The notes under the pieces were generated by a model. The model was not told the DNA's origin. It saw nothing but the letters and a program-made list of their open reading frames with translations, and did not search any database. The position numbers and the translations under genes were made by a program. This document shows positions 26,065-49,936 of a stretch of DNA of 64,000 bases, in pieces. The DNA lies in assembly GCF_003018255.1 (NCBI RefSeq), contig NZ_CP027440.1; one strand, written 5' to 3'. Position 1 is the first letter of the stretch. Every line of letters starts with the position of its first letter. Source of the stretch: Escherichia coli. Its GTDB lineage: Bacteria; Pseudomonadota; Gammaproteobacteria; Enterobacterales; Enterobacteriaceae.

Positions 26065-26099
26065 GGGACTTAGCCTGCGGCGGTTTTGTTTGGCTTCAG

Positions 26100-26345: not shown

Positions 26346-26652
26346 TTTGACGCCACCAACACCCGAGCTGTTATTATGTTCCGGGCAAAAAGTTAGATTT
26401 GATAATCGCGGATGGACGAAATTGCTTGATACACCCGCTTATCAGTTTTACATGGAAGCTCTGATGCATTGAGTCTGGACAGTTTTGTCGGCTGGATAAG
26501 GCATTTACGCGGCATCTGGCAAGAACACATGGCTCGTTGTAAACAATCCCATCTTTGTACCTGGAATAATCGTTTATATCCCCTGGCATTACCTTTCTTT
26601 GTTTACATTCCAACATCATTTTATAAACATTCTGCTTGTATTTTTCTTTACC

Positions 26653-26671
26653 GTAATGATAATCGCTATCA
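26653..26671. promoter_or_regulatory. Fur box upstream of efeU
   Basis: gtaatgataatcgctatca matches GATAATGATAATCATTATC at 14 of 16 core positions, about 60 bp upstream of efeU. Confidence 0.7.
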
Positions 26672-26729
26672 CTGCGATTTACTTTTCTTTGCATAGATTG
26701 ACTCAGAAAAACGTTTAAGGGTGGGTGGC

Positions 26730-27560
26730 ATGTTTGTTCCGTTTCTCATTATGTTGCGCGAAGGACTTGAAGCCGCGCTGATTGTCAGTTTGATTGCCAG
26801 CTATCTTAAGCGTACCCAGCGAGGCCGATGGATTGGTGTGATGTGGATTGGCGTGCTGTTTGCCGCTGCGTTGTGCCTGGGCTTGGGTATCTTCATTAAC
26901 GAAACCACCGGCGAATTTCCGCAAAAAGAACAGGAACTGTTTGAAGGTATCGTGGCGGTGATCGCCGTGGTGATCCTTACCTGGATGGTTTTCTGGATGC
27001 GCAAAGTGTCGCGCAACGTCAAAGTGCAACTGGAACAGGCAGTCGATAGCGCATTGCAGCGTGGAAATCATCATGGCTGGGCGCTGGTGATGATGGTCTT
27101 TTTTGCCGTTGCAAGGGAAGGGCTGGAGTCGGTCTTTTTCCTGCTGGCGGCGTTTCAACAAGATGTCGGGATCTGGCCGCCGCTGGGTGCAATGCTCGGT
27201 CTTGCTACAGCCGTGGTGCTCGGCTTCCTGCTCTACTGGGGCGGTATTCGCCTCAATCTTGGTGCATTTTTTAAATGGACCAGCCTGTTTATTCTCTTCG
27301 TCGCCGCAGGGCTGGCGGCTGGTGCCATTCGCGCATTTCATGAAGCCGGATTGTGGAACCACTTTCAGGAAATCGCCTTCGATATGAGTGCGGTGCTCTC
27401 AACTCACTCGCTGTTTGGCACGCTGATGGAAGGGGTTTTTGGCTATCAGGAAGCGCCGAGCGTCAGCGAAGTCGCCGTCTGGTTTATTTATCTCATCCCG
27501 GCGCTGGTGGCATTTGCTCTGCCACCACGCGCAGGGGCGACAGCGTCTCGCTCCGCGTAA
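26730..27560 (+). CDS. efeU: ferrous iron permease EfeU (276 aa, FTR1/OFeT family), apparently intact
   Basis: Continuous ORF (track 26721..27560, ATG at 26730 MFVPFLIMLREGLE) containing both REGLE motifs; no frameshift visible. Confidence 0.88.
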   Translation: MFVPFLIMLREGLEAALIVSLIASYLKRTQRGRWIGVMWIGVLFAAALCLGLGIFINETTGEFPQKEQELFEGIVAVIAVVILTWMVFWMRKVSRNVKVQLEQAVDSALQRGNHHGWALVMMVFFAVAREGLESVFFLLAAFQQDVGIWPPLGAMLGLATAVVLGFLLYWGGIRLNLGAFFKWTSLFILFVAAGLAAGAIRAFHEAGLWNHFQEIAFDMSAVLSTHSLFGTLMEGVFGYQEAPSVSEVAVWFIYLIPALVAFALPPRAGATASRSA

Positions 27561-27617
27561 CAAATACGACGCAAACTCTTGCTTAGTTACAACATACTTT
27601 AAAGGGATAGTCTCGTC

Positions 27618-28745
27618 ATGACCATTAACTTCCGCCGTAACGCATTGCAGTTTAGCGTGGCTGCGCTGTTCTCTTCTGCTTTTATGGCTAACGCCGCTGA
27701 TATTCCGCAGGTCAAAGTCACTGTGACAGATAAACAGTGCGAACCGATGACCATTACGGTTAACGCCGGGAAAACACAGTTCATTATTCAGAACCACAGC
27801 CAGAAGGCGCTGGAGTGGGAGATCCTCAAAGGCGTGATGGTGGTGGAAGAGCGGGAAAATATCGCCCCTGGTTTTAGCCAGAAAATGACGGCGAATTTAC
27901 AGCCTGGCGAATACGATATGACCTGCGGTCTGCTGACTAACCCGAAAGGGAAGTTGATCGTCAAAGGTGAGGCAACGGCGGATGCGGCGCAAAGTGATGC
28001 GCTGTTAAGTCTTGGTGGTGCAATTACTGCATATAAAGCGTATGTCATGGCGGAAACCACACAGCTGGTGACCGACACCAAAGCCTTTACCGACGCGATT
28101 AAAGCAGGCGATATCGAAAAAGCGAAAGCACTGTATGCGCCGACGCGCCAGCACTATGAGCGCATTGAACCGATTGCTGAACTGTTCTCCGATCTGGATG
28201 GCAGCATTGACGCCCGTGAAGATGATTACGAGCAAAAAGCCGCCGATCCGAAATTCACCGGTTTCCACCGTCTGGAAAAAGCATTGTTTGGCGATAACAC
28301 CACCAAAGGGATGGATAAGTATGCCGACCAGCTTTATACCGATGTGATCGATTTGCAAAAACGCATCAGTGAACTGGCTTTCCCTCCTTCAAAAGTGGTC
28401 GGCGGTGCAGCCGGACTGATTGAGGAAGTGGCGGCCAGCAAAATCAGCGGTGAAGAAGATCGCTACAGCCACACCGATCTGTGGGATTTCCAGGCTAACG
28501 TTGAAGGCTCGCAGAAAATTGTCGATCTGCTGCGTCCACAACTACAAAAAGTGAATCCGGAACTGTTGGCAAAAGTCGATGCCAACTTCATAAAGGTCGA
28601 TACCATTCTGGCGAAATACCGTACTAAAGACGGTTTTGAAAATTACGACAAACTGACCGATGCTGACCGGAATGCACTGAAAGGACCGATTACTGCGCTG
28701 GCGGAAGATCTGGCGCAACTTCGCGGTGTGCTGGGGCTGGACTAA
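27618..28745 (+). CDS. efeO: periplasmic iron uptake component EfeO (375 aa, cupredoxin + M75 peptidase-like)
   Basis: 375-aa ORF with signal peptide [26 protein letters not shown]. Confidence 0.93.
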
Positions 28746-28750
28746 GCGTT

Positions 28751-30022
28751 ATGCAGTATGAAGATGAAAACGGCGTGAATGAACCGTCACGCCGACGTTT
28801 ACTGAAAGGGATTGGTGCGCTGGCGCTGGCGGGAAGTTGTCCGGTCGCTCATGCACAAAAAACGCAAAGTGCGCCGGGTACGCTTTCACCGGATGCACGC
28901 AATGAGAAACAGCCGTTTTATGGTGAGCATCAGGCAGGGATCCTGACGCCACAACAGGCTGCAATGATGCTGGTGGCGTTTGATGTGCTTGCCAGCGATA
29001 AAGCCGATCTTGAACGGTTGTTTCGCTTGTTGACTCAGCGTTTTGCTTTTCTGACTCAGGGCGGAGCGGCACCAGAAACGCCAAATCCGCGCCTGCCACC
29101 ACTCGATTCCGGCATTCTTGGCGGCTACATTGCGCCCGATAATCTCACCATAACGTTATCGGTGGGCCACTCATTGTTTGATGAGCGCTTTGGCCTTGCG
29201 CCACAGATGCCGAAAAAGTTGCAGAAGATGACGCGTTTCCCCAACGACTCGCTGGATGCGGCGTTATGTCATGGTGATGTGTTGCTACAAATTTGCGCCA
29301 ACACCCAGGACACGGTGATCCATGCGCTGCGCGATATCATCAAACACACGCCGGATTTGCTCAGCGTGCGCTGGAAGCGGGAAGGGTTTATTTCCGACCA
29401 CGCGGCGCGTAGTAAAGGTAAAGAGACACCGATTAATTTGCTGGGTTTCAAAGACGGCACTGCCAATCCCGATAGCCAGAATGCGAAGTTGATGCAAAAA
29501 GTGGTGTGGGTGACGGCAGATCAGCAGGAGCCTGCGTGGACAATCGGTGGTAGCTACCAGGCGGTGCGGTTGATTCAGTTTCGGGTGGAATTTTGGGACA
29601 GAACGCCGCTGAAAGAACAGCAGACGATATTTGGGCGTGATAAGCAAACCGGCGCGCCGCTGGGAATGCAGCATGAGCATGATGTGCCTGATTACGCCAG
29701 CGATCCGGAGGGGAAGGTGATCGCGCTGGACAGCCATATCCGGCTGGCGAATCCCCGCACGCCAGAGAGTGAGTCAAGTCTGATGCTGCGTCGTGGCTAC
29801 AGTTATTCGTTGGGCGTCACCAATTCCGGGCAACTCGATATGGGGCTACTGTTTGTCTGCTACCAACACGATCTGGAAAAGGGCTTCCTGACAGTACAAA
29901 AAAGGTTGAATGGAGAGGCGCTGGAGGAATATGTCAAACCTATCGGTGGCGGCTATTTCTTTGCGCTGCCGGGTGTGAAGGACGCGAACGATTATCTCGG
30001 AAGCGCATTATTGCGGGTTTAA
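28751..30022 (+). CDS. efeB: Dyp-type peroxidase / deferrochelatase EfeB (423 aa, Tat substrate)
   Basis: 423-aa ORF with twin-arginine signal [16 protein letters not shown]. Confidence 0.93.
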
Positions 30023-30028
30023 TGTTTT

Positions 30029-30157
30029 TAGGCGGATAAGGCGTTTACGCCGCACCAGGCGTTCGTGCGCTGATGCGACGCTTGCGCGTCTTATCATGCC
30101 TACAATCGGTGCGGGTTCGGTAGGCCGGATAAGGCGTTCACGCCGCATCCGGCAAGC
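30029..30157. repeat. REP/BIME cluster (three REP units) downstream of efeB
   Basis: ggcggataaggcgtttacgccgcaccaggc ... gatgcgacgcttgcgcgtcttatcatgcctac ... taggccggataaggcgttcacgccgcatccggca. Confidence 0.85.
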
Positions 30158-30205
30158 TTTTACCAGTACTGCGAATCCTGCTGAAAGCACACAGCTTTTT
30201 TATCA

Positions 30206-30223
30206 CTGTCATCACTTTGTCAT
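30206..30223 (+). promoter_or_regulatory. Pho box (PhoB binding site) in the phoH promoter
   Basis: CTGTCAT-cact-TTGTCAT direct repeats with 4-bp spacer. Confidence 0.75.
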
Positions 30224-30647
30224 CTTTCCAGTAGAAACTAATGTCACTGAAATGGTGTTTTATGGTTAAATATAAGTGAATATATTGTTGCAATGAATGC
30301 GAGATCTGGTGTAATTATTAAGTAGCAGCGGAAGTTCCCGGCAGTGATAGTCAGTCACTATGGAGATCGCGGATGGTAACGTCCTGTACTGGACAATGTT
30401 TTGTTAAGCAAGGCTCCACCACTCGCGGAGATTTCTCCTCCGGTAGCAACTTCGTCACTCTGTATTTTTCTCACTTCCTCTCTTTACTCGTGTTACCGAC
30501 GCCGCAAACGGTGTGCGTAGCCGTTTTTCGGCATTTTATCCAAAAGCAAACTATGGCTTACAAGGAAGCCAACCCTCTGATGTTCGTGCGCATAATCGCG
30601 CTGCCAACGGCGCGTGTGATGAATACAAACAACTCAAGGTGCTCTCC

Positions 30648-31436
30648 ATGGGAAGACAAAAAGCAGTGATCAAAGCTCGTCGCGAGGCAAAACGTGTGCT
30701 GAGACGGGATTCGCGCAGCCATAAGCAGCGTGAAGAAGAATCGGTCACCTCGCTTGTGCAAATGAGCGGCGTAGAAGCCATTGGTATGGCCCGCGATAGT
30801 CGCGATACCTCGCCCATCCTCGCGCGAAATGAAGCGCAATTGCACTATCTGAAGGCTATTGAGAGTAAGCAGCTGATATTCGCCACGGGCGAAGCCGGGT
30901 GCGGAAAAACCTGGATCAGCGCAGCAAAAGCGGCAGAGGCCCTGATACATAAGGATGTCGACAGGATTATCGTCACCCGTCCAGTTCTGCAAGCCGATGA
31001 AGATCTTGGCTTCTTACCTGGTGATATCGCAGAAAAGTTTGCTCCCTATTTTCGCCCGGTCTACGACGTGCTGGTTCGGCGCTTAGGGGCTTCCTTTATG
31101 CAGTACTGCCTGCGACCGGAAATAGGGAAGGTGGAAATTGCGCCGTTCGCCTATATGCGTGGACGTACCTTTGAAAATGCAGTCGTCATTCTTGACGAGG
31201 CGCAGAATGTGACTGCCGCGCAAATGAAAATGTTTTTAACCCGCCTCGGGGAGAACGTGACGGTTATCGTCAACGGTGATATCACGCAATGCGATTTGCC
31301 TCGCGGCGTGCGCTCCGGATTAAGTGACGCGCTGGAACGTTTCGAAGAAGATGAAATGGTCGGGATCGTCCGATTCGGTAAAGAGAATTGCGTACGTTCG
31401 GCACTTTGCCAACGTACGCTACATGCATACAGTTAA
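30648..31436 (+). CDS. phoH: phosphate-starvation-inducible ATPase PhoH (262-aa form)
   Basis: ATG at 30648 (MGRQKAVIKARREAKR); Walker A GEAGCGKT; the same frame is open upstream (track ORF from 30513), consistent with a longer isoform. Confidence 0.85.
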   Translation: MGRQKAVIKARREAKRVLRRDSRSHKQREEESVTSLVQMSGVEAIGMARDSRDTSPILARNEAQLHYLKAIESKQLIFATGEAGCGKTWISAAKAAEALIHKDVDRIIVTRPVLQADEDLGFLPGDIAEKFAPYFRPVYDVLVRRLGASFMQYCLRPEIGKVEIAPFAYMRGRTFENAVVILDEAQNVTAAQMKMFLTRLGENVTVIVNGDITQCDLPRGVRSGLSDALERFEEDEMVGIVRFGKENCVRSALCQRTLHAYS

Positions 31437-31453
31437 GTGTATTATCGGCGCAG

Positions 31454-31479
31454 AGCCCGGGCGAACCGGGCTTTGTTTT
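31454..31479 (+). terminator. rho-independent terminator after phoH
   Basis: agcccgg-gcgaa-ccgggct hairpin followed by ttgtttt. Confidence 0.7.
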
Positions 31480-31485
31480 GGGTGT

Positions 31486-31899
31486 TTATACCCGGACTAG
31501 CGTTTTTTCTGAAACCACCATTTTTATTTGTCCCTGACTGGTGAAGTGTACGCTCATCCTGTGGCTTTTTTGTAGTTGCTGATAAAGCTCATCAGGTATT
31601 GCTAAGCTCTCTGCATATTCTTGCGGCGTATATTGGTATGCTGCATGATGCTGCTGTTTTTTAAAACGCAGCTTATTGTACAATGCCCAGACGATTAACA
31701 CGACGGCATTCGCCACTGCCAGCAAAAAATAGAACTGAAGTCGGCTTCTGGCCTCGCTTTGCCAGTAATAACCCGTCAGCAGATCAATGGCGAATAAGAA
31801 TATGAACAAAGCAAATAATGTCCACAAGATGGTTGTGGCAACATAATCAACCAGTAAACGTACTGGCGATTGTCGGGTCGTAATAATTAGATTGTTCAT
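31486..31899 (-). CDS. pgaD: PNAG synthase accessory subunit PgaD (137 aa)
   Basis: 137-aa membrane [29 protein letters not shown]. Confidence 0.92.
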
Positions 31900-31900
31900 A

Positions 31901-33226
31901 TTAACCTCTCAGAATCCCACGATCGGGACTTACCCAACGAGCGCGTTGTTTTTTAGGCATCAACATGACTCGTGTAAATGATACCAATGTCGTTGCCAGG
32001 CTTAGCATCCAGAAAATAACCGGAAACCAAATAATCCAGAAAAGCGATGAAGCCAGATTGTGCTCATAGCGATTCTCAATTACCAGACTGACAATAAATT
32101 GCAGTAAACATAACGTGCACAATAATATTCCGGCAGTATGTGTCGCTGCGATATGTGTCAATTCAATATTTAACGGTACACCTGCAAGTTGGACTGCGTA
32201 AATAATGAAACCGACCAGGCAGGTAAAGGCCCATATTGTCGTCAGGCAGTATTCAAAAAACAGTGGCCACATTCGAAAGTTTTCTTTTCGCCACAACCTT
32301 GTCATATTTTTGAGGAATACTTCTGCACCGCCCTGAGCCCAGCGCAGGCGCTGTTTCCACAGCCCTTTTAACGTTTCAGGCATTAATATCCAGCACAGCG
32401 CCCGTGGCTCGTAAAAAATCGTCCACTGATTCAACTGCAGCTTCCAGCTAATATCAATATCTTCGGTGATCATATCGTCACTCCAGTAACCCACTTCTGC
32501 CAGGGCGCTGCGACGAAATGCGGCAATAACACCGGAAACGGTAAATACATTTCCATAGATACGCTGGGTCCGCTTGATCAAACCAATAATTGAGGAATAC
32601 TCGCCAACCTGAATTTTACCCACTAGGGTAGAACGTGTGCGAATACGAGGATTACCGGTTACGGCACCCACACGTGGGTTGTACAACATCGGTTCCACAA
32701 TATATGCCGCTGCATCGCGGTCTAATAACGCGTCGCCATCAATGCACACCAGATATTCACTTTTCGCCGCGGCAGCTCCGGTTTTAAGCGCAATGGCTTT
32801 CCCCTGGTTTTGCGCCAGATGAATGACCCGCAGACGGGGAATTTGTGCAGCCATGCGATCCAGGATGGCACGGGTTTTGTCTGTTGAACCATCATTTACG
32901 GCAATAACTTCAATGTTCTCATAACGCTGTGCTAAAGCGGCATGTATGGTTTCCTCAACGTTTTTCTCCTCATTAAAACAGGGAATGATAATGGAGATAG
33001 ATGGATTATCTTTCAACTGGGGGGCTGGTGCGTTTTCTCCCCACGGCCAGTGGCGTTCACGATAGACCCAGAAATAGACGCCGCCAATAATCCACATAAT
33101 GGACATAAAAAACGGCCAGAAGAAAACGAACCTCATCATCAGTTCACCAGAGTGAAAGTACGCTACGCATAGAGGTATGCATAACACCAGACATAATATA
33201 AAAAACGATACGATGCGATTAATCAT
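31901..33226 (-). CDS. pgaC: poly-beta-1,6-N-acetylglucosamine synthase PgaC (441 aa, GT2)
   Basis: 441-aa ORF with GT2 motifs ([18 protein letters not shown]); overlaps pgaB stop. Confidence 0.95.
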
Positions 33227-35237
33227 TTTTCGGATACCAGGCTGTTGAAAACTCAGGACGAATAACGTCTATTTCAGGTTGGTTATGCAGAAAATTGTCG
33301 GGATAATAACCATAATTTTTCACTCCATTCAGTTGTAATAGGCTCATCCAGTGAGCGAGTTGTTGTGAAGAAATAGCCTGATGCTGACCATTTTTCTGCC
33401 AGTTTTGTGCCTGTAATTCTAAAATTGATTTGTCTTTAGCCTGCGGGATGCTTTTCATCTGATTGGTCAATTGTGTTAACCATTGATCAGCCGATTTTTC
33501 TGTGACGCCTTCCATATAAGGCATAGCCATAATAGCGGTCCAGTCATAGCTTTTTAGGAAATCAGCATAATTCTGTGCAAACCAAGCTTCACTTTCAGGT
33601 TGTATTACCGGAAGTGCAAAAATATTTCGTGCAGTTTTAACATGTGGACCACGAATGGCTTTTACGCGCGCACTAAGTTCTAAAGTGAAGTCAGTTAACG
33701 CACGACTTTTAAAGCGGGTCCACTGTTTGAATTGCTCCGGGTTTTGTCGAATTTCGCTCAGACTCCCGCTAAAGCCAGCTTGCTGATAAGCCGCGATAGC
33801 CGCTGCACTGGCATCTTCATAATCTGAAAGCAAAGCATCATCGTGGAACAATATGCCATCAAAAGCAGCATGTCCGGCAAGATCATCATATAACATGCCA
33901 ACTTGTGCTCTGACCCTGTCATCGAAAGGGGAGAGACGGCGGTATTGTTCAGGATGAATTTGTGCTTTTTTCTCCCCAGTTGGTAAGTATTTTACTCGCG
34001 TTAATGTGGGATCTAAATCCCAGCTTAATACCGGCATCCACGCATAGATGTTTACACCTGAGCGGGTACGCAATTGCCAGGCAACCCGACTAAAAATATC
34101 TGCTTTCATTGGTAGCAAACGATTTGGAAACCAGACCTCTTTAACCAGCCCATCACCATCGGGATCAGCAAATGCTTGTAAATACACGGTAGATATTTGC
34201 ATATCTTTTACCCTCTGAATTAGCACATCAATATTGCGATCCATTTGCTGGCGGTTTTCGTCATAAATGTAATCAAGATCGATATGCATTACCCGTTGTA
34301 GTGGTTTTTCCTGTACGGTAATAATTTGCTGGGCAAACTCTTTTAATGAGGGATTATTGGCGATTAATACTCGCGGAATGGAATCTAATTGCGACGCATT
34401 TGCCAAACCTGATTCAAGGGTGAAGAACATGTCATAACCGAGTTTTTTTAATTCCGCGATTGCTATGCCATTCGCTTCGCCATAAGGCCAAACAAAAACG
34501 TGTGGATTTACCTCAGCCTTTGTACGCAGGTATTCCGTCATTTTTACAGCATCCAGACGAATTCTTTCCCGGTATTCTGCTGCGGTTTCATACCGTGCGT
34601 GGTCAGTAAAATATGCACGATTTACATATACAGGCAATAAGCTGCCGGTGGCATTAGCCTGAATACCGTAGTGAGAATTCCATGTATGAGAAGCGACCTC
34701 AACGAGCCGGGAACGCGCAACTTCTCGCACTTGTTGCCACGTGGCAAAATATTCTCGACTGACCATCTCATCGCCAAATTTTACTTGTTCATCCGCTGGC
34801 GTATCGACCCAACTGCCGACGGGGGCCCATACAGCAGGCCACTGGAAGGCCTGAAGAATTGGGAAGACGCGGGTATAAAAACTCTGGTAGCCGTCATCAA
34901 AAGTCAGCACTACTGCTTTTTCCGGTAGCGGTTTTCCTCCTCGATGTGCTTCACGAATTTGAGCAATACTGACCGGTTGATAACCGTTCTCGCGCAGCCA
35001 GGCAAATTGTTCACGCAGTGCTGATGTCCGCACTGACATAAAACGCTGGTCGGCAGCTTCGTCTTCAACGTTATGCCATGAAATCGCCACAAAACCATTA
35101 TGCGGCCACGGTTGCTCGGCGAGTAAAGATTCGCGATCCTGTGGCGGTATAAATGATGTTCTTGACTGGCTAATGCACGCAGTGAGCATAATTATACTCA
35201 CCAGCATCAGGATATATTTATTTCCATTACGTAACAT
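33219..35237 (-). CDS. pgaB: PNAG N-deacetylase lipoprotein PgaB (672 aa)
   Basis: 672-aa ORF with lipobox (LTACIS) and polysaccharide deacetylase domain. Confidence 0.95.
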
Positions 35238-35245
35238 ATTTATCC

Positions 35246-37669
35246 TTAAAATCTGAATGTCATATCGAATTCAACGTATAAGTTGTGTTCTCTGTCACCG
35301 TCATAAGGTCGTTTTTCCCAGCGTAGCGTTGCGCCAGCATCAATCACGTCATTCCAGCTAATACGTTGCCCGTAGCCGAGTTGGGTGACGACATCCGTGC
35401 CATAATGTTTTTGCCAGGAGGCACCAACACCTGCGCTGAAGATTTGCTCCCAGCTATTTTCATAGCTTCGCCATAACAAATGACTTGCCTCAAATGCCGG
35501 AACAATATCGAACGTTTTTATAGGGTTGTAGTATGGAGTGTCGTGTTCTGTATTTTGTTCGTAATACAGATTGGGTAGGAAATCGACAATCAAATATGGT
35601 GAAGACCAGATGCGTTCCTGACCCTCAAGTGAGACTTCCTGACGCTGGTTACTGTCGGAAAAATCAGTGAAAGCCCAGGAGACACCGTACTTACGCCGCT
35701 CATTTTGATACCAGCGAACATAAGCCTGAGCACTGTTGCCTGTAACACCATTTTTCATTGCCCGTAATGGAACGCGGTGAGAGAGGCGTTCCAGTTGCGA
35801 ACCAATACGCCAGTTATCATTAAAATCATACCAGCCAGACAGGCGCGCGCCGGGTTTATGCTCATGATTGAAAACGCGTTCAGCGTACTCCGCCTCGAGC
35901 CAGATATTACGTGACCGCCACTCAACACCCGCCAGCCAGTCGCGAACAATCCCTTTTCCTTCGCTAAATTGTCCATCGGCATAACCGAATCCAGCAAAAC
36001 CGCGCCAGTTATCCTTCAGCGGTGGTGAATAAACGATGGTGGTTAAGTCGACATCATGTTTACCACTATCCGGGCCTTCGGCATCAATTCCTGTTGAACC
36101 AGCTATACGAAGCTCTGCAAGATTATGTACATCAACCGCACGTTTTAAACGTACAACGCCGGGATCTTGCGGTTCACGTTCGACAACATCGTGCGTTAAG
36201 ACAGCTGCCTGCTGCCATTCTTGTAACGTTAATGCTGTCCATGCTTGTTCAACCTCCAGATTAATATTACGTGGCTCGATCACTTCTGCTTTTTTTAATT
36301 CATTTTCTGCTGCACGAGGCCAACCGCGGGCTTGTAACACACTCGCGTAATCAATGCGCAGTCCCTGATTTCCTGGTGCGTTATAAGCAAGCTCTCTGGC
36401 TATCATTTCAGCCTGAGGAAGATCATTACTATATTTTGCTACGGTTGAGAGAAACGAATGCCCCTGTAACCAGGTATCATTCGGGATGCTCGTAGGCGTG
36501 CCCATTAACCGAAGGAAAGGCGGCGAAGTATTAATGGTATGTTGGGTGACAGTTAGCGCGCCGGGATAATTTTCACTCTCCAGGTGGCTGTAAAAGAGAT
36601 CCGCAAGTTCTTCATCGGATAAATCCGGGGCAATGGTCTCCTTGTGATAAAAGAGCTCTGTCATTATTGACTGTGCTTTTTTTGGCTGCTGTTCTTTGAG
36701 ATAAGCCGACGCAACCCAATATTGCGCCCAGGGCGGAATAATTTGCCTCGTATTTTTTAAACGCTGATAGTGAGAAATAACGTCTTTATAACGATCGCGA
36801 GTTAATAACGCGCCAAGATGATCAACCTGAATACGCTGGTACTGGGCAGTGCGGTCTGAGTTATCGTGCCACAGAATTTCTAATGCAGCGTATTGGGCGA
36901 GGGCGCGATCGGCAATGGCATAACGTTCACTTTCACTGCGCGTAGGCATAAACGACAGTCTGATCAGTTCGGCATGAATATCAGCGCGAATATCTGGCGT
37001 TAAATTGGCATCGTCAATCGCGGCAGCTAGTTGATTATTACGTAATGCCTGCACGTATTCTGTGGGATATTGTTGCTTAGATGCATTTTCAGGTAATGAC
37101 TCTGTCATCGCCCGTAATTCATCCTGATGACGCCCCGTCAGTTTATAGATATAGGCTTCTGCGAGTAAATTGGCTTTGTCCGGCGCTCCAGATTTAAGCT
37201 GCTTAAGTTTAACCAGCGCAGTATCATAGTGACCCGCATCTGCCAGGGTTAAAATTTGTCCCCGTTGATAATCCTTATTTTGCGGCTCCAGAGAGAGCGC
37301 CTTTTGCCACAGTGTAAGCGAGTTTTGCCATTGTTGCAGGTTACGATAAGCGACGGCGACAGCTGCATAACCACGCGCTGGTAATTGCTGATGACGGTAG
37401 CGGCTGTAAACGGTAATGACCTGTTTATCTTGCCCGGCCCATAAGGCAATTTGTAACCAGTCAGCAATTTGGTTATTACTGAGTGTTGATTTTTGTGCAA
37501 ACCATGACAAAGCTGGCTGAGTATTTCCTTTGCGAGCTTCAATAATCAATGCATCATAGGCGTTATTAACAGCACTCTTCGCCGCGGGACTCGCTGCTAA
37601 AAATGCGGCAGTAAGAAGTTTCAAAGCCCATTTGGTTTTCGGGCACCTTTTTCTGCTACTTGAATACAT
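35246..37669 (-). CDS. pgaA: PNAG outer-membrane export porin PgaA (807 aa, TPR + beta-barrel)
   Basis: 807-aa ORF MYSSSRKRCPKTKWALKLLTAAFLAASPAAKSA. Confidence 0.95.
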   Translation of the reverse strand: MYSSSRKRCPKTKWALKLLTAAFLAASPAAKSAVNNAYDALIIEARKGNTQPALSWFAQKSTLSNNQIADWLQIALWAGQDKQVITVYSRYRHQQLPARGYAAVAVAYRNLQQWQNSLTLWQKALSLEPQNKDYQRGQILTLADAGHYDTALVKLKQLKSGAPDKANLLAEAYIYKLTGRHQDELRAMTESLPENASKQQYPTEYVQALRNNQLAAAIDDANLTPDIRADIHAELIRLSFMPTRSESERYAIADRALAQYAALEILWHDNSDRTAQYQRIQVDHLGALLTRDRYKDVISHYQRLKNTRQIIPPWAQYWVASAYLKEQQPKKAQSIMTELFYHKETIAPDLSDEELADLFYSHLESENYPGALTVTQHTINTSPPFLRLMGTPTSIPNDTWLQGHSFLSTVAKYSNDLPQAEMIARELAYNAPGNQGLRIDYASVLQARGWPRAAENELKKAEVIEPRNINLEVEQAWTALTLQEWQQAAVLTHDVVEREPQDPGVVRLKRAVDVHNLAELRIAGSTGIDAEGPDSGKHDVDLTTIVYSPPLKDNWRGFAGFGYADGQFSEGKGIVRDWLAGVEWRSRNIWLEAEYAERVFNHEHKPGARLSGWYDFNDNWRIGSQLERLSHRVPLRAMKNGVTGNSAQAYVRWYQNERRKYGVSWAFTDFSDSNQRQEVSLEGQERIWSSPYLIVDFLPNLYYEQNTEHDTPYYNPIKTFDIVPAFEASHLLWRSYENSWEQIFSAGVGASWQKHYGTDVVTQLGYGQRISWNDVIDAGATLRWEKRPYDGDREHNLYVEFDMTFRF

Positions 37670-37905
37670 CCTGTATTACTCCATGTATTGCCAAAATCTC
37701 TCTCTATATCTAATTACAGGTAACTGAAAAGAAAGATATTTTTGCATCTCATAATCCGTTATTAAACGCGGAAGAGACACGTGAATTGTTGATGATGAGA
37801 AGAAGAAATGATGAGCAGATTGTCCATATAAAATCCTTTTCTCGCCCGAAAATCCATTCCAATGATGAGGATCTTCAGGAATACGGCATAAATCCCAATG
37901 CCTTT
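37670..37905 (-). promoter_or_regulatory. long pgaA 5' leader carrying multiple GGA motifs (CsrA-binding type)
   Basis: Six or more GGA triplets on the transcribed strand, including one over the SD (AGGAUG at the start codon). Confidence 0.6.
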
Positions 37906-38256
37906 TTCAAAATAAATTAGGATTAAAATAATTAAATCAGTAAATTCCGATGCATAATTTCGGATTTTTCGAAAGTCCTGATGAAAGGCAGCGCTACTGC
38001 ACTCACGAATTTAATTGTTATTCCTAATGTATCTATTAATTAATGCTTTATAAGGATTTTATTATAATCCTTTATAAGTATTTGCAAGCCTGCCTTGCAG
38101 CAAAAAATGTATAAAGCATTAAAGTGATAATAATTACATTCTGCAACTATCATCATCGGTATTGTTTGTGGGTGGATTTTCATATTGACAACAGTACAGT
38201 TCTTATATCTATTAATAATAAAAAGGGATCTACAACCTACAGGTTGGTGTAGCTTT

Positions 38257-39624
38257 ATGGAAAAAGACTATTTGGGAATTAGTAGTACTGTATTAGTGAG
38301 CTTATTGTTTGGGCTTGCATTGGTTTTGGTTAATAGTTGGTTCAATCAGCCAACCGTTGAGGAAGTTGTTCCACGATCAACCTATCTGATGGTTATGATT
38401 GCTTTATTTTTTATCGATACTGTTGCATTTATTTTTATGCAGTTGTATTTCATTTATGACCGTAGGCAATTTTCAAACTGTATACTTAGTTTGGCTTTTC
38501 TAAGTTGTTTGATTTACTTTATTAAAACCGTCATTATCATTCAGCAAATTATTGAGGGGCGTTTGACAAGCAGTGTTGTTCAAAATGACATTGCAATTTA
38601 TTATTTGTTTCGTCAGATGAGTTTGTGCGTATTAATATTTCTGGCATTGGTAAATAAAGTTAGTGAAAACACAAAACAGCGCAATTTGTTTTCCAAAAAA
38701 GTGACTTTGTGCATAACTTTGTTTTTTGTTCTTGGGGGGCCGATAGTTGCTCACATATTTTCTAGCCATTATGAGAGCTACGATTTACACATTGCCGAGT
38801 TAACCAATAAAAATGGTCAGGTGGTTTGGAAAGCCTCATATGTTACCATAATGATTTTCATGTGGTTAACCTTGCTTTCGGTTAATCTATACTTTAATGG
38901 TTTACGCTGTGATATCTGGAACGGGGTGTCGGTGATTGCTTTTTGTGCCGTGCTGTACAATATCTCTCTGTTATTTATGAGCAGGTATAGCGTGTCCATT
39001 TGGTATATTAGTCGCACTATTGAAGTAGTCAGTAAGTTAACCGTTTTGGTAATTTTTATGTGCCATATATTCAGTGCGCTACGAGTAACAAAGGACATTG
39101 CACATCGCGATCCCTTAACCAATATATTTAACAGAAATTATTTTTTTAATGAACTGACGGTTCAATCAGCATCGGCCAAAAAAAAACCTTATTGCGTCAT
39201 GATTATGGATATTGACCACTTCAAAAAAGTCAACGACACCTGGGGACATCCGGTTGGCGATCAAGTGATAAAGACAGTGGTGAATATCATTGGGAAAAGC
39301 ATACGACCAGATGACCTTTTAGCGCGCGTTGGCGGCGAAGAGTTTGGCGTCTTGCTGACGGAGATCGATACTGAATGTGCGAAAGCTTTAGCGGAAAGGA
39401 TTCGGGAAAATGTTGAACGTTTAACTGGCGATAATCCTGAATACGCCATACCACAAAAAGTGACAATTAGTATTGGCGCTGTTGTAACGCAGAAAAATGA
39501 GTTAAACCCTAAGGAGATCTATCAACTGGCTGATAACGCACTTTACGAGGCGAAAGAGACCGGGCGTAATAAGGTGGTAGTAAAAGAGGCAGAAATTCTT
39601 ATCAACCGCAAGGATGATGAATGA
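38257..39624 (+). CDS. dgcT: membrane-anchored diguanylate cyclase DgcT/YcdT (GGDEF domain)
   Basis: Track ORF trimmed to ATG at 38257 (MEKDYLGISSTVLVSLLFGLALVLV); multiple TM helices then GGDEF domain (RVGGEEFGVLL). Confidence 0.88.
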   Translation: MEKDYLGISSTVLVSLLFGLALVLVNSWFNQPTVEEVVPRSTYLMVMIALFFIDTVAFIFMQLYFIYDRRQFSNCILSLAFLSCLIYFIKTVIIIQQIIEGRLTSSVVQNDIAIYYLFRQMSLCVLIFLALVNKVSENTKQRNLFSKKVTLCITLFFVLGGPIVAHIFSSHYESYDLHIAELTNKNGQVVWKASYVTIMIFMWLTLLSVNLYFNGLRCDIWNGVSVIAFCAVLYNISLLFMSRYSVSIWYISRTIEVVSKLTVLVIFMCHIFSALRVTKDIAHRDPLTNIFNRNYFFNELTVQSASAKKKPYCVMIMDIDHFKKVNDTWGHPVGDQVIKTVVNIIGKSIRPDDLLARVGGEEFGVLLTEIDTECAKALAERIRENVERLTGDNPEYAIPQKVTISIGAVVTQKNELNPKEIYQLADNALYEAKETGRNKVVVKEAEILINRKDDE

Positions 39625-39685
39625 GTCTGTCGCTAGTTGTCGACCTCCGCCTGGGGCTTCTCATCCCCCAGTGTGTGAAATATAC

Positions 39686-42948: not shown

Positions 42949-43011
42949 GGGGCACTCACGCTTTCGCTTAAACCGTAAAATGTCGGATGATAATTCCGGC
43001 ATTTTTATCTA

Positions 43012-43845
43012 TCAGGATTCCGGTGGAACCGACATATGGCGGTATTTCACTAGAATGTCATTCTGCCGTTCTGCTTTATTTTGCAAATCCCAAAGACCGC
43101 GGTCGATACCATCATTAATCAGGAAAATGACGCCTGTTTCGATAGCCGACATCAGGCACAGCATAACGGGTTCGTTCGAGGTGTAACCTACTTCCCCTTC
43201 CAGCAAGCGCTGGTAGTCAATAAAGCGGAAGACCCCCGCCTGAACTTCATAGGAAAGTATCGTCTTACTGGTGTTCACCGAGGAGAGGATCTCGCCGGTA
43301 CTCACATTGACGACGCGCAGGTTCACGGCAATCTGATCAAGCTGGTATTGCGTGTCTGCACCGATCCCAAAATATCTTGCCCCAACCCCGCCCGATTTAA
43401 CGTTGCTTTCATAACCGATAATTGAACCTTCAACCATGATATTTGCCGCCGTTAAAGATTGCAGCGGGATTCGGTTATTAATGGCAACCGTGCCGTTTTC
43501 TTGTGCCGCACGAATAATCTTGCGCTCGTTAAGCAGGTTTTGTAAGCCTTGGCGCTCCAGCGGTATAAACCAGCGAGAATCTTTCAATGCCGTGACCAGC
43601 ATTGCCGTGGCGCTTTGCGGAACAGCAGTGGAGAAGTTACTTGCCGGGTAGGGTTTAAATTGCCCGGTTTCGTCCTGAATGTTGTATACCGAAACAAAGA
43701 TCTTACCCGTCGGCGCTGGCAGATGGGTCAAATCTTTGTAGCTCTGAGCACGAGGCATTAATGTCGGTCTGGCGGCTTCTTTAGGCGGGGCGGTTAAGCA
43801 TCCGCTCAGTAACATGACGGCAACCAAAAGAAATAAGCGCTGCAT
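43012..43845 (-). CDS. csgG: curli secretion channel lipoprotein CsgG (277 aa)
   Basis: 277-aa ORF MQRLFLLVAVMLLSGCLTAPP (lipobox). Confidence 0.95.
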   Translation of the reverse strand: MQRLFLLVAVMLLSGCLTAPPKEAARPTLMPRAQSYKDLTHLPAPTGKIFVSVYNIQDETGQFKPYPASNFSTAVPQSATAMLVTALKDSRWFIPLERQGLQNLLNERKIIRAAQENGTVAINNRIPLQSLTAANIMVEGSIIGYESNVKSGGVGARYFGIGADTQYQLDQIAVNLRVVNVSTGEILSSVNTSKTILSYEVQAGVFRFIDYQRLLEGEVGYTSNEPVMLCLMSAIETGVIFLINDGIDRGLWDLQNKAERQNDILVKYRHMSVPPES

Positions 43846-43871
43846 GATTATTTTCCTTATGAAGCTGGGGC

Positions 43872-44288
43872 TTAAAAATCGGTTGAGTTATTTTGTAAAC
43901 CCGAAACCTGGATGGTCGAGGTTTGTCCGGTTTTACGATCTGTCACGTTCAACTGCAATTGACCATCGCGGTTAGCAATATCAACAATATAATCGTTGGT
44001 CACCATGCGGCCCGGTTTACCGGTATTAATATTCGACAGTAGCCCACCCAAAATTTGTGACTGGATGGCCTGAGTAAAGTTATCTAACGCCGAGGGCGTT
44101 TCAATACCAAAGTCATCGTTATAGCTCGGATCTTTATAAGAGTTTTGGGCCTGAGCGCTATTTAACAAAAAAGCGCCATTATTTGGGTTACCACCAAAGT
44201 TTGGATTACGGAACTGGAAAGTCATGGTTCCAGCCCAACTTAATGGCGAAATAAGCATGAGTAGAACTACTGCATGTTTGACACGCAT
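43872..44288 (-). CDS. csgF: curli assembly component CsgF (138 aa)
   Basis: 138-aa [36 protein letters not shown]. Confidence 0.95.
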
Positions 44289-44312
44289 TGCAGCCTCCGA
44301 ACAATTTATTAT

Positions 44313-44702
44313 TTAAAATTCATCATGCGCCAAATCGCCCGTACTTAATAACGCTTGGTTTATCTGGCGACGATTTAGTGCTTCTTCAGTTTGAATCAGT
44401 GCAAAGACGACAGTTTTCTCGAAGTCTCTTTTCAACGGAAATAAAAAAGTCTGGAAAATAACGTCCTGATTCACCGTTATTGTGATCCAGCTTCCCCATC
44501 GTGCACTGGGCCTTTCATTAATCGTTAAGTTACCCGTATAGTCACTTTCCCATTTATCACTAAAGGCTCGGTAAAAATCATGGCCAATAGATGAAACAGT
44601 ATGGTCAGTTAACAATCCCGGGACTTCTACCTCAACGGCGTGAAGATTCCCTGCGGCGAACAGAAATTCTGCCGCCACAATCCAGCGTAAATAACGTTTC
44701 AT
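44313..44702 (-). CDS. csgE: curli secretion specificity factor CsgE (129 aa)
   Basis: 129-aa [36 protein letters not shown]. Confidence 0.95.
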
Positions 44703-44706
44703 GGCT

Positions 44707-45357
<651 letters not shown>

Positions 45358-46110
45358 GATGAAACCCCGCTTTTTTTATTGATCGCACACCTGACAGCTG
45401 CCTCTAAAATAGAAGCACCAGAAGTACTGACAGATGTTGCACTGCTGTGTGTAGTAATAAATCAGCCCTAAATGGGTAAAATATAAAACTAATGGATTAC
45501 ATCTGATTTCAATCTAGCCATTACAAATCTTAAATCAAGTGTTAAACATGTAACTAAATGTAACTCGTTATATTAAAATGTTAATCTTAAGGTTTTATTA
45601 AGTTTAGAAATGATAGAAAAGTTGTACATTTGGTTTTTATTGCACAATTTTAAAAAATCATACAAATGGTGCTAACTTACTAATAATGCATATAAAAAAT
45701 ATTTCGGTGTAGTCCTTTCGTCATGTAAAACGTTCTTGTTTTTTCTCCACACCTCCGTGGACAATTTTTTACTGCAAAAAGACGAGGTTTGTCACGGCTT
45801 GTGCGCAAGACATATCGCAGCAATCAGCGACGGGCAAGAAGAATGATTGTCTGGTGATTTTTGATAGCGGAAAACGGAGATTTAAAAGAAAACAAAATAT
45901 TTTTTGCGTAGATAACAGCGTATTTACGTGAGTTTTAATACTTTGGTATGAACAAAAAAAGAAAAATACAACGCGCGGGTGAGTTATTAAAAATATTTCC
46001 GCAGACATACTTTCCATCGTAACGCAGCGTTAACAAAATACAGGTTGCGTTAACAACCAAGTTGAAATGATTTAATTTCTTAAATGTACGACCAGGTCCA
46101 GGGTGACAAC
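45358..46110. promoter_or_regulatory. 753-bp divergent csgD / csgBAC regulatory region
   Basis: Long AT-rich ORF-free intergenic region between divergently oriented csgD and csgB. Confidence 0.85.
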
Positions 46111-46566
46111 ATGAAAAACAAATTGTTATTTATGATGTTAACAATACTGGGTGCGCCTGGGATTGCAGCCGCAGCAGGTTATGATTTAGCTAATTCAGAA
46201 TATAACTTCGCGGTAAATGAATTGAGTAAGTCTTCATTTAATCAGGCAGCCATAATTGGTCAAGCTGGGACTAATAATAGTGCTCAGTTACGGCAGGGAG
46301 GCTCAAAACTTTTGGCGGTTGTTGCGCAAGAAGGTAGTAGCAACCGGGCAAAGATTGACCAGACAGGAGATTATAACCTTGCATATATTGATCAGGCGGG
46401 CAGTGCCAACGATGCCAGTATTTCGCAAGGTGCTTATGGTAATACTGCGATGATTATCCAGAAAGGTTCTGGTAATAAAGCAAATATTACACAGTATGGT
46501 ACTCAAAAAACGGCAATTGTAGTGCAGAGACAGTCGCAAATGGCTATTCGCGTGACACAACGTTAA
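46111..46566 (+). CDS. csgB: curli nucleator minor subunit CsgB (151 aa)
   Basis: Track ORF trimmed to ATG at 46111 (MKNKLLFMMLTILGAPGIAAAAGYDLANSEYNFAV). Confidence 0.93.
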   Translation: MKNKLLFMMLTILGAPGIAAAAGYDLANSEYNFAVNELSKSSFNQAAIIGQAGTNNSAQLRQGGSKLLAVVAQEGSSNRAKIDQTGDYNLAYIDQAGSANDASISQGAYGNTAMIIQKGSGNKANITQYGTQKTAIVVQRQSQMAIRVTQR

Positions 46567-46606
46567 TTTCCATTCGACTTTTAAATCAATCCGATGGGGG
46601 TTTTAC

Positions 46607-47062
46607 ATGAAACTTTTAAAAGTAGCAGCAATTGCAGCAATCGTATTCTCTGGTAGCGCTCTGGCAGGTGTTGTTCCTCAGTACGGCGGCGGCGGTAACC
46701 ACGGTGGTGGCGGTAATAATAGCGGCCCAAATTCAGAGCTGAACATTTACCAGTACGGTGGCGGTAACTCTGCTCTTGCTCTGCAAGCTGACGCCCGTAA
46801 CTCTGATCTGACCATTACCCAGCACGGCGGCGGTAACGGCGCAGATGTTGGCCAAGGTTCTGATGACAGCTCAATCGATCTGACTCAGCGTGGTTTCGGC
46901 AACAGCGCTACTCTTGATCAGTGGAATGGTAAAGATTCTACTATGACTGTTAAACAGTTCGGTGGTGGTAACGGTGCTGCTGTTGACCAGACTGCATCTA
47001 ACTCCAGCGTCAACGTCACTCAGGTTGGCTTTGGTAACAACGCGACCGCTCATCAGTACTAA
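46607..47062 (+). CDS. csgA: major curlin subunit CsgA (151 aa)
   Basis: 151-aa ORF with five imperfect amyloid repeats (S-x5-Q-x-G-x-G-N-x-A-x3-Q), e.g. SELNIYQYGGGNSALALQ and SDLTITQHGGGNGADVGQ. Confidence 0.96.
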   Translation: MKLLKVAAIAAIVFSGSALAGVVPQYGGGGNHGGGGNNSGPNSELNIYQYGGGNSALALQADARNSDLTITQHGGGNGADVGQGSDDSSIDLTQRGFGNSATLDQWNGKDSTMTVKQFGGGNGAAVDQTASNSSVNVTQVGFGNNATAHQY

Positions 47063-47084
47063 TACATCCTCTGTATTAAAGAAA

Positions 47085-47108
47085 CAGGGCGCAAGCCCTG
47101 TTTTTTTT
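47085..47108 (+). terminator. rho-independent terminator after csgA
   Basis: cagggcgcaagccctg hairpin followed by T8. Confidence 0.85.
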
Positions 47109-47120
47109 CGGGAGAAGAAT

Positions 47121-47504
<384 letters not shown>

Positions 47505-47505
47505 G

Positions 47506-47885
<380 letters not shown>

Positions 47886-47979
47886 GTTTCTGAACAACTC
47901 ACGTTGCTGAGCAGAAAAATGCGATTTAACCAAAAAGCCTGCTGTACACTTAAGAAACAAGAAGGTGTAAGGAGGCGTT

Positions 47980-48513
47980 ATGAAAACGCGTATTCATGTT
48001 GTGCAGGGTGATATTACCAAACTGGCCGTTGATGTGATTGTGAATGCGGCTAATCCGTCATTAATGGGAGGCGGCGGCGTCGATGGGGCCATTCATCGCG
48101 CAGCGGGTCCGGCCCTGCTGGATGCCTGTTTAAAAGTCAGGCAGCAGCAGGGCGATTGCCCTACGGGGCATGCCGTTATTACGCTTGCAGGCGATCTTCC
48201 CGCGAAAGCCGTAGTGCACACCGTCGGGCCAGTCTGGCGTGGTGGTGAACAAAACGAAGACCAGCTTTTGCAGGATGCCTATCTCAATAGCCTGCGACTG
48301 GTGGCAGCAAACAGCTATACGTCAGTGGCTTTTCCTGCAATCAGTACTGGAGTTTATGGTTACCCTCGTGCGGCAGCGGCTGAAATCGCAGTAAAAACCG
48401 TTTCAGAATTTATTACCCGTCACGCTTTACCCGAACAGGTATACTTTGTCTGTTATGATGAAGAAAACGCCCACCTCTACGAAAGACTCCTTACTCAACA
48501 AGGAGATGAATGA
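47980..48513 (+). CDS. ymdB: macrodomain O-acetyl-ADP-ribose deacetylase YmdB (177 aa)
   Basis: 177-aa [46 protein letters not shown] (macro domain). Confidence 0.93.
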
Positions 48514-48514
48514 T

Positions 48515-49936
48515 TTGCCCCGGCTGGCGAGTGCGGTGCTGCCACTGTGTTCGCAACATCCCGGTCAGTGTGGCATTTTTCCTCTGGAGAAAAGTCTGGA
48601 TGCGTTTGCCGCCCGGTATCGTCTGGCCGAAATGGCAGAGCATACGCTGGATGTTCAGTATTACATCTGGCAGGACGATATGTCGGGTCGGTTACTCTTT
48701 TCCGCCCTGTTAGCCGCAGCAAAGCGTGGCGTTCGCGTCCGTTTGTTGCTGGACGACAACAATACGCCCGGACTTGACGACATTTTACGCTTGCTTGACA
48801 GTCATCCCCGCATTGAAGTCCGGCTTTTTAATCCTTTCTCGTTTCGCTTGCTACGTCCGCTTGGTTATATCACCGACTTTTCCCGTCTCAATCGCCGTAT
48901 GCACAATAAAAGTTTCACTGTCGATGGCGTGGTGACGCTGGTAGGGGGGCGAAATATTGGTGATGCCTATTTTGGGGCAGGGGAAGAGCCACTTTTTTCG
49001 GATTTAGATGTCATGGCAATAGGACCAGTTGTAGAGGACGTTGCCGATGATTTCGCCCGCTACTGGTATTGCAAATCGGTTTCACCCCTACAGCAGGTGC
49101 TGGATGTCCCGGAAGGTGAAATGGCGGATCGCATCGAGTTACCAGCATCCTGGCACAACGATGCCATGACGCATCGTTATTTACGCAAAATGGAATCCAG
49201 CCCGTTTATAAATCATCTGGTTGATGGAACGTTGCCGCTTATCTGGGCGAAAACACGTTTATTAAGTGATGATCCGGCGAAAGGGGAAGGCAAGGCAAAA
49301 CGGCATTCACTGTTACCGCAGCGCCTGTTCGATATCATGGGCTCACCCAGTGAACGCATCGATATTATCTCTTCCTATTTTGTACCGACACGCGCAGGTG
49401 TGGCGCAACTCTTACGGATGGTGAGAAAAGGGGTAAAGATTGCGATCCTAACCAATTCTCTTGCCGCTAACGATGTTGCTGTCGTCCATGCCGGATACGC
49501 GCGCTGGCGCAAAAAATTGCTCCGCTATGGCGTGGAATTATATGAACTCAAGCCGACGCGTGAACAAAGTAGTACGTTACACGATCGCGGCATAACCGGT
49601 AATTCCGGTGCCAGCTTGCATGCTAAAACCTTTAGCATCGATGGTAAAACGGTGTTTATCGGCTCTTTCAATTTCGATCCGCGTTCAACATTGCTCAATA
49701 CTGAAATGGGCTTCGTGATAGAGAGCGAAACGCTGGCACAGTTAATTGATAAACGCTTTATTCAGAGCCAGTATGATGCGGCCTGGCAGCTCCGTCTGGA
49801 CAGGTGGGGACGGATCAACTGGGTTGATCGTCATGCAAAGAAAGAGATTATTCTCAAAAAAGAACCCGCCACCAGTTTCTGGAAGCGGGTTATGGTCAGA
49901 CTGGCGTCGATATTGCCCGTGGAATGGTTATTATAA
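48515..49936 (+). CDS. clsC: cardiolipin synthase C ClsC/YmdC (473 aa, PLD superfamily)
   Basis: TTG at 48515 one nt after ymdB stop gives 473 aa (MPRLASAVLPL); two HKD motifs (HNKSFTVDG, HAKTFSIDG); alternative ATG at 48506. Confidence 0.85.
   Translation: MPRLASAVLPLCSQHPGQCGIFPLEKSLDAFAARYRLAEMAEHTLDVQYYIWQDDMSGRLLFSALLAAAKRGVRVRLLLDDNNTPGLDDILRLLDSHPRIEVRLFNPFSFRLLRPLGYITDFSRLNRRMHNKSFTVDGVVTLVGGRNIGDAYFGAGEEPLFSDLDVMAIGPVVEDVADDFARYWYCKSVSPLQQVLDVPEGEMADRIELPASWHNDAMTHRYLRKMESSPFINHLVDGTLPLIWAKTRLLSDDPAKGEGKAKRHSLLPQRLFDIMGSPSERIDIISSYFVPTRAGVAQLLRMVRKGVKIAILTNSLAANDVAVVHAGYARWRKKLLRYGVELYELKPTREQSSTLHDRGITGNSGASLHAKTFSIDGKTVFIGSFNFDPRSTLLNTEMGFVIESETLAQLIDKRFIQSQYDAAWQLRLDRWGRINWVDRHAKKEIILKKEPATSFWKRVMVRLASILPVEWLL

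Follow-up and report, generated by a model that had tools for sequence, protein, structure and literature searches.

The gap between csgD and csgB is almost certainly the shared csgDEFG/csgBAC curli control region of E. coli, present here as a common natural allele. Within the window (the whole 64-kb stretch of DNA that was analyzed), the gap runs from 45358 to 46110 and measures 753 bp, bounded by the csgD ATG (minus strand, up to 45357) and the csgB ATG (plus strand, from 46111). It is 65.9% A+T, compared with 49.9% over the entire window. The two genes are divergent and lie inside an intact csgGFED/csgBAC locus, in which all seven csg proteins are full length. The CsgD of the window differs from K-12 CsgD at S19P and S110A, and the RefSeq protein WP_000481500.1 is the csgD product in E. 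coli JNE23-011 and in seven of eight sampled genomes.

The window is collinear with JNE23-011, with 156 substitutions and no indels across 64 kb, and the RefSeq annotation of that strain could therefore be transferred. Ranked by this annotation, the csgD–csgB gap (753 bp) is the longest intergenic gap, ahead of putP–efeU (665 bp), efeB–phoH (625 bp), and pgaA–dgcT (587 bp). No RefSeq feature lies beneath the region in any record examined. The first-pass annotation had described a 753-bp AT-rich divergent gap, assigned it to csgD/csgBAC control, and counted it among the longest non-coding stretches. Its coordinates proved exact, the assignment is borne out by the flanking genes, the 99.1% identity to K-12, and exact matches to known sites, and the gap is actually the longest annotated one of the window. 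The identity, position, and conservation of the sequence elements were observed directly, and the features are collected in Table 1.

TABLE 1 Features of the csgD–csgB region and its flanking genes, in window coordinates
Feature	Position	Strand	Remarks
csgD–csgB divergent intergenic control region	45358..46110	.	99.1% identity to K-12 MG1655; 65.9% A+T
csgD CDS, flank	44707..45357	-	216 aa, full length
csgB CDS, flank	46111..46566	+	151 aa, K-12-identical
csgD 5' untranslated leader, 147/148 nt; start 45505/45504	45358..45505	-	no K-12 difference
SL1 leader hairpin, ~-80 to -30 from AUG	45387..45437	-	RNAalifold, 61 leaders, with many compensatory pair changes
sRNA pairing-site cluster	45418..45455	-	contiguous complementarity of 14–19 bp to K-12 sRNAs
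OmrB site	45418..45436	-	-79..-61, 19-bp helix
OmrA site	45418..45431	-	14-bp helix
GcvB site	45433..45450	-	18-bp helix
McaS site	45438..45453	-	-96..-81, 16 Watson-Crick pairs
RprA site	45441..45455	-	15-bp helix
Rfam RF02752 ES056 sRNA match	45413..45504	-	119.7 bits (gathering score 43); E = 1.3e-22; model matched over its full length
K-12 RcsB footprint equivalent (-31 to +54)	45452..45536	.	range from PMC12388358; K-12-identical
A/U-rich Hfq site I (-128 to -112)	45469..45485	-	converted from PMC6061853 (±1 nt); K-12-identical
K-12 H-NS footprint equivalent (+28 to -201)	45478..45706	.	range from PMC12388358 and PMC4894380; includes substitutions 45585 and 45672
csgD P1 -10 hexamer TAGATT	45511..45516	-	read in sequence; unchanged in 59/60 other species
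csgD P1 -35 hexamer TTGATT, 16-bp spacer	45533..45538	-	read in sequence
OmpR activating box GTTACATTTAGTTACATGTT, ~-40 to -59	45545..45564	-	sole match in window; K-12-identical
Two quoted CpxR boxes	45573..45607 (-68..-80 = 45573–45585; -90..-102 = 45595–45607)	-	ranges from PMC4894380
Degenerate MqsA-type palindrome AATCTTAAGGTT (K-12 AACCTTAAGGTT)	45583..45594	.	one mismatch; PMC4894380
MlrA palindrome AAAGTTGTACA-N12-TGCACAATTTT, -113 to -146	45618..45651	.	exact match; site sequence from PMC3509220
Conserved A-tract block	45652..45667	.	at least 80% conserved over 60 species
Substitution C (K-12 A), -167	45672	.	common allele; cross-species column identity 0.08
Initial RcdA binding region equivalent (-192 to -308)	45697..45813	.	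range from PMC3535384; K-12-identical
82-aa mechanical ORF, ATG-initiated, rejected as gene	45769..46017	-	no Pfam match
Substitution T (K-12 C)	45847	.	in the 11-allele E. coli sample, window and JNE23-011 only
Substitution A (K-12 C)	45857	.	common allele
T-run, T6 (K-12 T7; T5 in three sampled strains)	45900..45905	.	explains the 752/753/754 bp of sampled alleles
Substitution A (K-12 G)	45931	.	rare in the E. coli sample; shared with JNE23-011
Conserved block TAATACTTTGGTATGA	45937..45952	.	cross-species footprint
Substitution A (K-12 T)	45954	.	common allele; A is the state in other Escherichia sequences examined
CsgD box CGGGTGAGTTA upstream of csgB	45976..45986	+	sole match in window
Predicted csgBA -10 element CATACT, sigma-S type	46006..46011	+	CATACT in 59/60 species
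csgB ribosome-binding region AGGGTGA	46100..46106	+	block more than 95% conserved

Global alignment against the 754-bp region of K-12 MG1655 yielded six substitutions (45585, 45672, 45847, 45857, 45931, and 45954), one 1-bp indel in a T-run, and no large indels. The stretch from 45358 to 45584, which spans the leader, the core promoter, and the OmpR box, is without any K-12 difference. Five of the seven differences are common E. coli alleles in a sample of 11 alleles. Across complete E. coli genomes, the region was found in 5371 of 5426, and 5329 of these matched with coverage of at least 80%; the exact 753-bp allele is carried by at least 60, many of them of poultry (APEC) and human origin. 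Among 29 evenly spaced E. coli genomes, the region measured 753 bp in 12, 754 bp in 10, and 752 bp in 7. Strain 104 has an intergenic region 100% identical to that of the window, with the remainder at 98–99% identity and 8.2 kb (31480–39679) different. As a common allele with all core control sites present, the region is an ordinary one.

Conservation of the full length had been taken by the first-pass annotation as a sign that the curli regulatory inputs are intact. The length is indeed conserved, being one T short of the 754 bp of K-12, with 752, 753, and 754 bp all common. The inference about inputs stands for all of the well-established ones, which are K-12-identical, but not for the reported MqsA palindrome, which is broken at -80. 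Preserved length by itself is weak evidence for intact inputs because, according to reviews, single-base changes within the region can alter curli expression (PMC13304067).

To view these sites across species, we used a degenerate pattern for the CsgD helix-turn-helix, which retrieved 93 loci from species representatives, 60 of which contained both gene starts; the main representatives of E. coli and of S. enterica subsp. enterica are not among them. The intergenic length was 742–802 bp in the 60 species, which belong to more than 15 genera, including Escherichia, Salmonella, Citrobacter, Enterobacter, Leclercia, Lelliottia, Kosakonia, Buttiauxella, Atlantibacter, and Franconibacter. Peaks of conservation coincided with known elements, with two further blocks at 45652–45667 and 45937–45952.

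The csgD P1 start was anchored by published probe primers at -335 and +67 (PMC12388358); they lie at 45840 and 45439 and thereby place +1 at 45505, while a start at 45504 better fits the -10 spacing and a 147-nt leader (PMC6061853). The -35 hexamer reads TTGCTT in 48 of the 60 other species. A scan for the sigma-70 consensus left the real P1 undetected (8 of 12 positions match) and returned two other promoter-like matches, with no enrichment over shuffles. Upstream, the 20-nt OmpR box pattern occurs in the window and at nine further csg loci, and the OmpR D1 site has been placed at approximately -51 (PMC13304067). The MlrA half-sites are kept across genera. As the MlrA site has been positioned between those of IHF and OmpR (PMC3913822), the conserved A-tract block at 45652–45667 is probably the upstream IHF site.

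Much has been mapped onto this region in K-12, where it is the fifth largest divergent intergenic region at 754 bp, with 26 of 32 mapped protein sites less than 200 bp from the csgD start (PMC5745457), and where no other such region is as dense in mapped protein sites (PMC5745457, PMC12713406). A recent systematic study reported that deletion of several regulators reported to bind the region was without effect on curli expression (PMC12713406), so the presence of a site does not imply a functional input.

The difference from K-12 that touches a reported operator is the C>T change at 45585 (-80), which converts the palindrome AACCTTAAGGTT to AATCTTAAGGTT through one half-site mismatch. The perfect inverted repeat AACCT TA AGGTT at -78, an instance of the MqsA operator form AACCT-N2/3-AGGTT, is absent from the window. 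In K-12, this palindrome was reported as an MqsA operator repressing csgD (Soo & Wood, PMC4894380); the base at -80 is also the outermost of the first quoted CpxR box, and that paper quotes IHF and H-NS ranges that include it. MqsA control of csgD is disputed, as it was not reproduced at physiological levels, whether by deletion or by moderate overproduction (PMC6918082). The exact 41-mer with T occurs in at least 2066 complete E. coli genomes and that with C in at least 1682, and the perfect palindrome was found in none of the 60 other Enterobacteriaceae species. Given that MqsA control was not reproduced, that the T allele is widespread, and that the palindrome is absent from those species, the -80 change is unlikely to be of much consequence. 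Separately, we observe that within E. coli only some alleles of the csgD promoter have the K-12 MqsA palindrome, which is broken in at least 2066 genomes and absent in 60 species; this argues against a conserved MqsA input.

The wider possibility, that this is the curli control region but one functionally rewired in the lineage, with the changes at 45585, 45672, 45847, and 45931 altering the amount of curli or its temperature dependence, we consider quite unlikely. It draws on the seven differences from K-12, one of which destroys a palindrome, and on the -167 change, which lies in the H-NS zone and possibly in the upstream IHF site. Single-base changes in the region can modify curli expression (PMC13304067, PMC11278976), and a 2026 preprint connects semi-constitutive rdar morphotypes with polymorphisms between the genes. 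Apart from the window, only JNE23-011 carries the 45847 and 45931 alleles in the 11-allele sample, and many of the genomes with the exact allele are poultry-derived (APEC). However, all seven differences fall in columns that vary between species (identity 0.08–0.5 over the 60 species) and lie outside the conserved blocks, the -80 change alone reaching the margin of a block, and most of them, including T at -80, are common in E. coli. The 45847 T also occurs in some other Escherichia species, in a poorly conserved area. The 45931 A, which would sit in the 5-bp spacer of a putative CpxR-like TTTAC-N5-TTTTA (45923–45937), occurs in each of the six other Escherichia sequences compared, E. albertii and E. 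whittamii among them, and 45954 A is likewise the state in other Escherichia sequences. These observations favor an ordinary allele of the curli control region.

On the csgD side, the leader has been measured at 148 nt (PMC4152358) or 147 nt (PMC6061853), and its identity to K-12 leaves every mapped sRNA site intact. The hairpin SL1, reported at -83 to -28 (PMC4152358), was recovered with covariation. The first-pass annotation had pointed to the csgD 5' UTR as a place to look for known sRNA target sites, and those of OmrA/B, McaS, RprA, and GcvB were all found there. They were located by a contiguous-helix search with K-12 sRNA sequences in which G-U pairs were permitted; because shuffles reach 14–16 bp under these settings, the helices are persuasive only through their coincidence with published sites, and PMC4152358 and PMC6061853 describe them at corresponding positions. 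Whole-length RNAduplex comparisons of sRNA and leader gave energies no better than those of shuffled sRNAs, and a RydC site in the leader was not recovered by the simple contiguous-helix search. Hfq site I adjoins the region of sRNA-induced RNase E cleavage (PMC6061853).

The leader also bears on the possibility of a separate gene within the interval, be it a stand-alone sRNA (ES056) or a small protein, which we judge to be highly improbable. The ES056 match is strong, and it was the sole Rfam match in 43000–48500. Yet it extends from the csgD transcription start without leaving the leader, and in K-12 as in the window RF02752 falls on the initial 92 nt of the csgD mRNA. The match is therefore most simply read as a csgD leader fragment and not a separate gene; for this leader, cleavage by RNase E induced by sRNAs has been documented, as has possible premature termination (PMC6061853, PMC4152358). 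As for a small protein, the ATG-initiated 82-aa ORF is the candidate, but the T-run polymorphism shortens it elsewhere in E. coli, leaving 64 aa in K-12 and 44 aa in three T5-type strains, and it was rejected as a gene. A Pfam search of the three longest internal ORFs gave no match, and RefSeq places no feature there. The earlier description of the gap as ORF-free does not hold literally, as mechanical ORFs of 30–82 aa occur in it, but it holds biologically, the longest being neither conserved nor matched in Pfam.

The csgB side carries CGGGTGAGTTA, the CsgD box motif (Brombacher et al. 2003). Most of the 60 species keep CGGGTGAG. From the conserved CATACT together with a CsgD box that overlaps the -35 position, we would predict a csgBA start near 46018 and a leader of ~93 nt.

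Between the two promoters, conservation is low (0.38 identity) in the center of the region (45680–45930, ~250 bp). Over 61 sequences, the csgD -35 lay 101 ± 0.3 bp from the distal MlrA half-site and 473.5 ± 3.4 bp from the csgB CATACT, and the MlrA half-site lay 340.5 ± 3.4 bp from the CsgD box (a stretch with sequence identity of ~0.4–0.46). The better-conserved flanks were more variable in length, with a standard deviation of 7–8 bp. The promoter-to-promoter spacing is thus tightly constant across genera despite the unconserved central sequence.

It is conceivable, though unlikely, that the two curli promoters are architecturally coupled via a spacer selected for length and not for sequence. 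If so, the spacer could reflect a defined nucleoprotein loop of IHF, H-NS, and CsgD on which the bistable on/off behavior of the curli genes depends, and the T5/T6/T7 polymorphism, including the T6 of the window, would be fine-tuning inside a tolerated range. The notion that the interval is mere A+T-rich spacer, the remains of a gene, or DNA gained by horizontal transfer, without specific function, could appeal to its base composition and its unconserved center, but is refuted by the conservation pattern, with presence at near-equal length in 60 species of more than 15 genera, sharply conserved blocks at known sites, and nearly invariant spacing between the blocks.

For the curli control region of this strain, we infer from the K-12 and Salmonella literature which proteins bind, which RNAs pair, and what regulation results. 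A weak csgD promoter (TTGATT-16 bp-TAGATT, minus strand) would start transcription at 45504/45505 and would rely on activators at fixed positions, namely OmpR at approximately -50, MlrA at -113 to -146, and IHF farther upstream. H-NS, CpxR, RcsB, RcdA, and others would silence or modulate csgD via footprints that overlap the activator sites. In the 147/148-nt leader, SL1 and its flanking single strands would be bound by Hfq, OmrA/B, McaS, RprA, and GcvB, and the sRNAs would block translation or trigger RNase E cleavage. The CsgD protein made would then bind CGGGTGAGTTA over the -35 position of the csgBA promoter and turn the curlin genes on.

The strain appears, from its sequence, genetically competent for regulated curli production, which bears on biofilm formation and environmental persistence. 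A control region that ranks among the best studied in E. coli fully accounts for the largest non-coding gap of the window, which so offers no candidate for a new element. The allele specificity of the MqsA palindrome, the T5/T6/T7 run, and the length-constrained spacer are specialist side points that leave this verdict unaffected.

The csgD–csgB region examined here is already known. Its counterpart in K-12 MG1655 (NC_000913.3 1103197–1103950, 754 bp) has the same flanking genes in the same orientation; identity to K-12 is complete in the leader and core promoter, across the OmpR box and the MlrA palindrome, in the footprint regions of RcsB and RcdA, and at the CsgD box, and the difference between T6 and T7 accounts for 753 rather than 754 bp. 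The 1455-bp nanC–fimB region of E. coli (Table S6 of PMC5745457) is likewise a long A+T-rich divergent spacer with multiple regulators, but its genes, regulators, and sequence are others, and the analogy is one of design only. In Salmonella and other Enterobacteriaceae, the csgD–csgB (agfD–agfB) region shares the same architecture, at 760 bp in S. enterica subsp. diarizonae. The -10 TAGATT, OmpR-type box, MlrA half-sites, CsgD box, CATACT, and leader hairpin are kept in other Enterobacteriaceae, whereas the sequences diverge over the central ~250 bp and in the 5' portion of the leader, and the csgD -35 is mostly TTGCTT. OmpR sites also differ in number, with six (D1–D6) in Salmonella and D1 only in E. 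coli (PMC10002515, PMC13304067).

Across 61 sequences, comprising the window and the 60 csgD loci with both gene starts (from the species representatives L014–L106), the lengths between regulatory elements are conserved far more than the sequence. The MlrA site stands 340.5 ± 3.4 bp from the CsgD box in more than 15 genera, with the sequence between them poorly conserved, and 101 ± 0.3 bp separate the csgD −35 hexamer from the distal MlrA half-site. The flanks are better conserved in sequence than the stretch between the MlrA site and CsgD box, yet their length is more variable (sd 7–8 bp). At the csgD promoter, the −35 hexamer reads TTGATT in Escherichia vs TTGCTT in 48 of the 60 other species, and the −10 hexamer TAGATT is unchanged in 59 of these 60.

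Features discussed, by window coordinates
Feature	Position	Strand
pgaDCBA/dgcT stretch	31480-39679	
Second A+T-rich tract	37330-39335	
csgD	44707-45357	-
csgD-csgB region (search query)	45358-46110	
csgD -35 hexamer	45533-45538	
csgD -35 to csgB-side CATACT (predicted -10)	45538-46006	
MqsA palindrome	45583-45594	
MlrA site to CsgD box	45641-45976	
T-run	45900-45905	
ymdB	47980-48513	
clsC	48446-49936	

In E. coli, only some alleles of the csgD promoter have the "MqsA palindrome" known from K-12. By exact matches to a 41-mer over the site in complete genomes, the C-type (perfect palindrome, as in K-12) is present in at least 1682 genomes and the T-type (one mismatch, as in the window) in at least 2066; the perfect palindrome was found in none of the 60 other Enterobacteriaceae species examined. 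Together, these counts and the cross-species absence provide population evidence on the disputed control of csgD by MqsA.

We searched 5426 complete E. coli genomes with the csgD-csgB region. No match was found in 55 genomes, and a further 42 covered less than 80% of the region, as in S1-CAM-01-A, which retains just the final 61 bp. Six matches were on plasmid-typed records. In an evenly spaced sample of 29 genomes the region measured 753 bp (12 genomes), 754 bp (10 genomes), or 752 bp (7 genomes). The T-run is T6 in the window, T7 in K-12, and T5 in three sampled strains, and this length polymorphism also moves the reading frame of an 82-aa ORF.

CsgD carries P19 and A110 here vs S19 and S110 in K-12. 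As WP_000481500.1, the accession of CsgD in the collinear strain JNE23-011, is the RefSeq csgD protein in seven of eight sampled genomes, the unusual CsgD is that of K-12. The 156 substitutions between the window and JNE23-011 are clustered, a pattern noted over 10000-14000, 20000-32000, and 56000-58000: 47 of them, for example, fall within 10–14 kb (agp-yccJ-wrbA-ymdF), and they are absent from long stretches. This distribution suggests recombination patches.

The ymdB and clsC frames share about 60–70 bp in both the ORF list and the PGAP annotation, whereas the K-12 record starts clsC immediately past ymdB, a difference in start-codon annotation. Elsewhere, pgaDCBA and dgcT occupy an 8.2-kb stretch adjoining tRNA-Ser. 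Of the window's strongly A+T-rich tracts, the second lies here (up to 68.8% A+T over 753 bp), centered on the 587-bp divergent pgaA-dgcT gap, another control region related to biofilm. The window, K-12, and JNE23-011 all carry this stretch, whereas strain 104, with a csg intergenic region identical to that of the window, has an IS3 element and a DUF2726 gene in its place.
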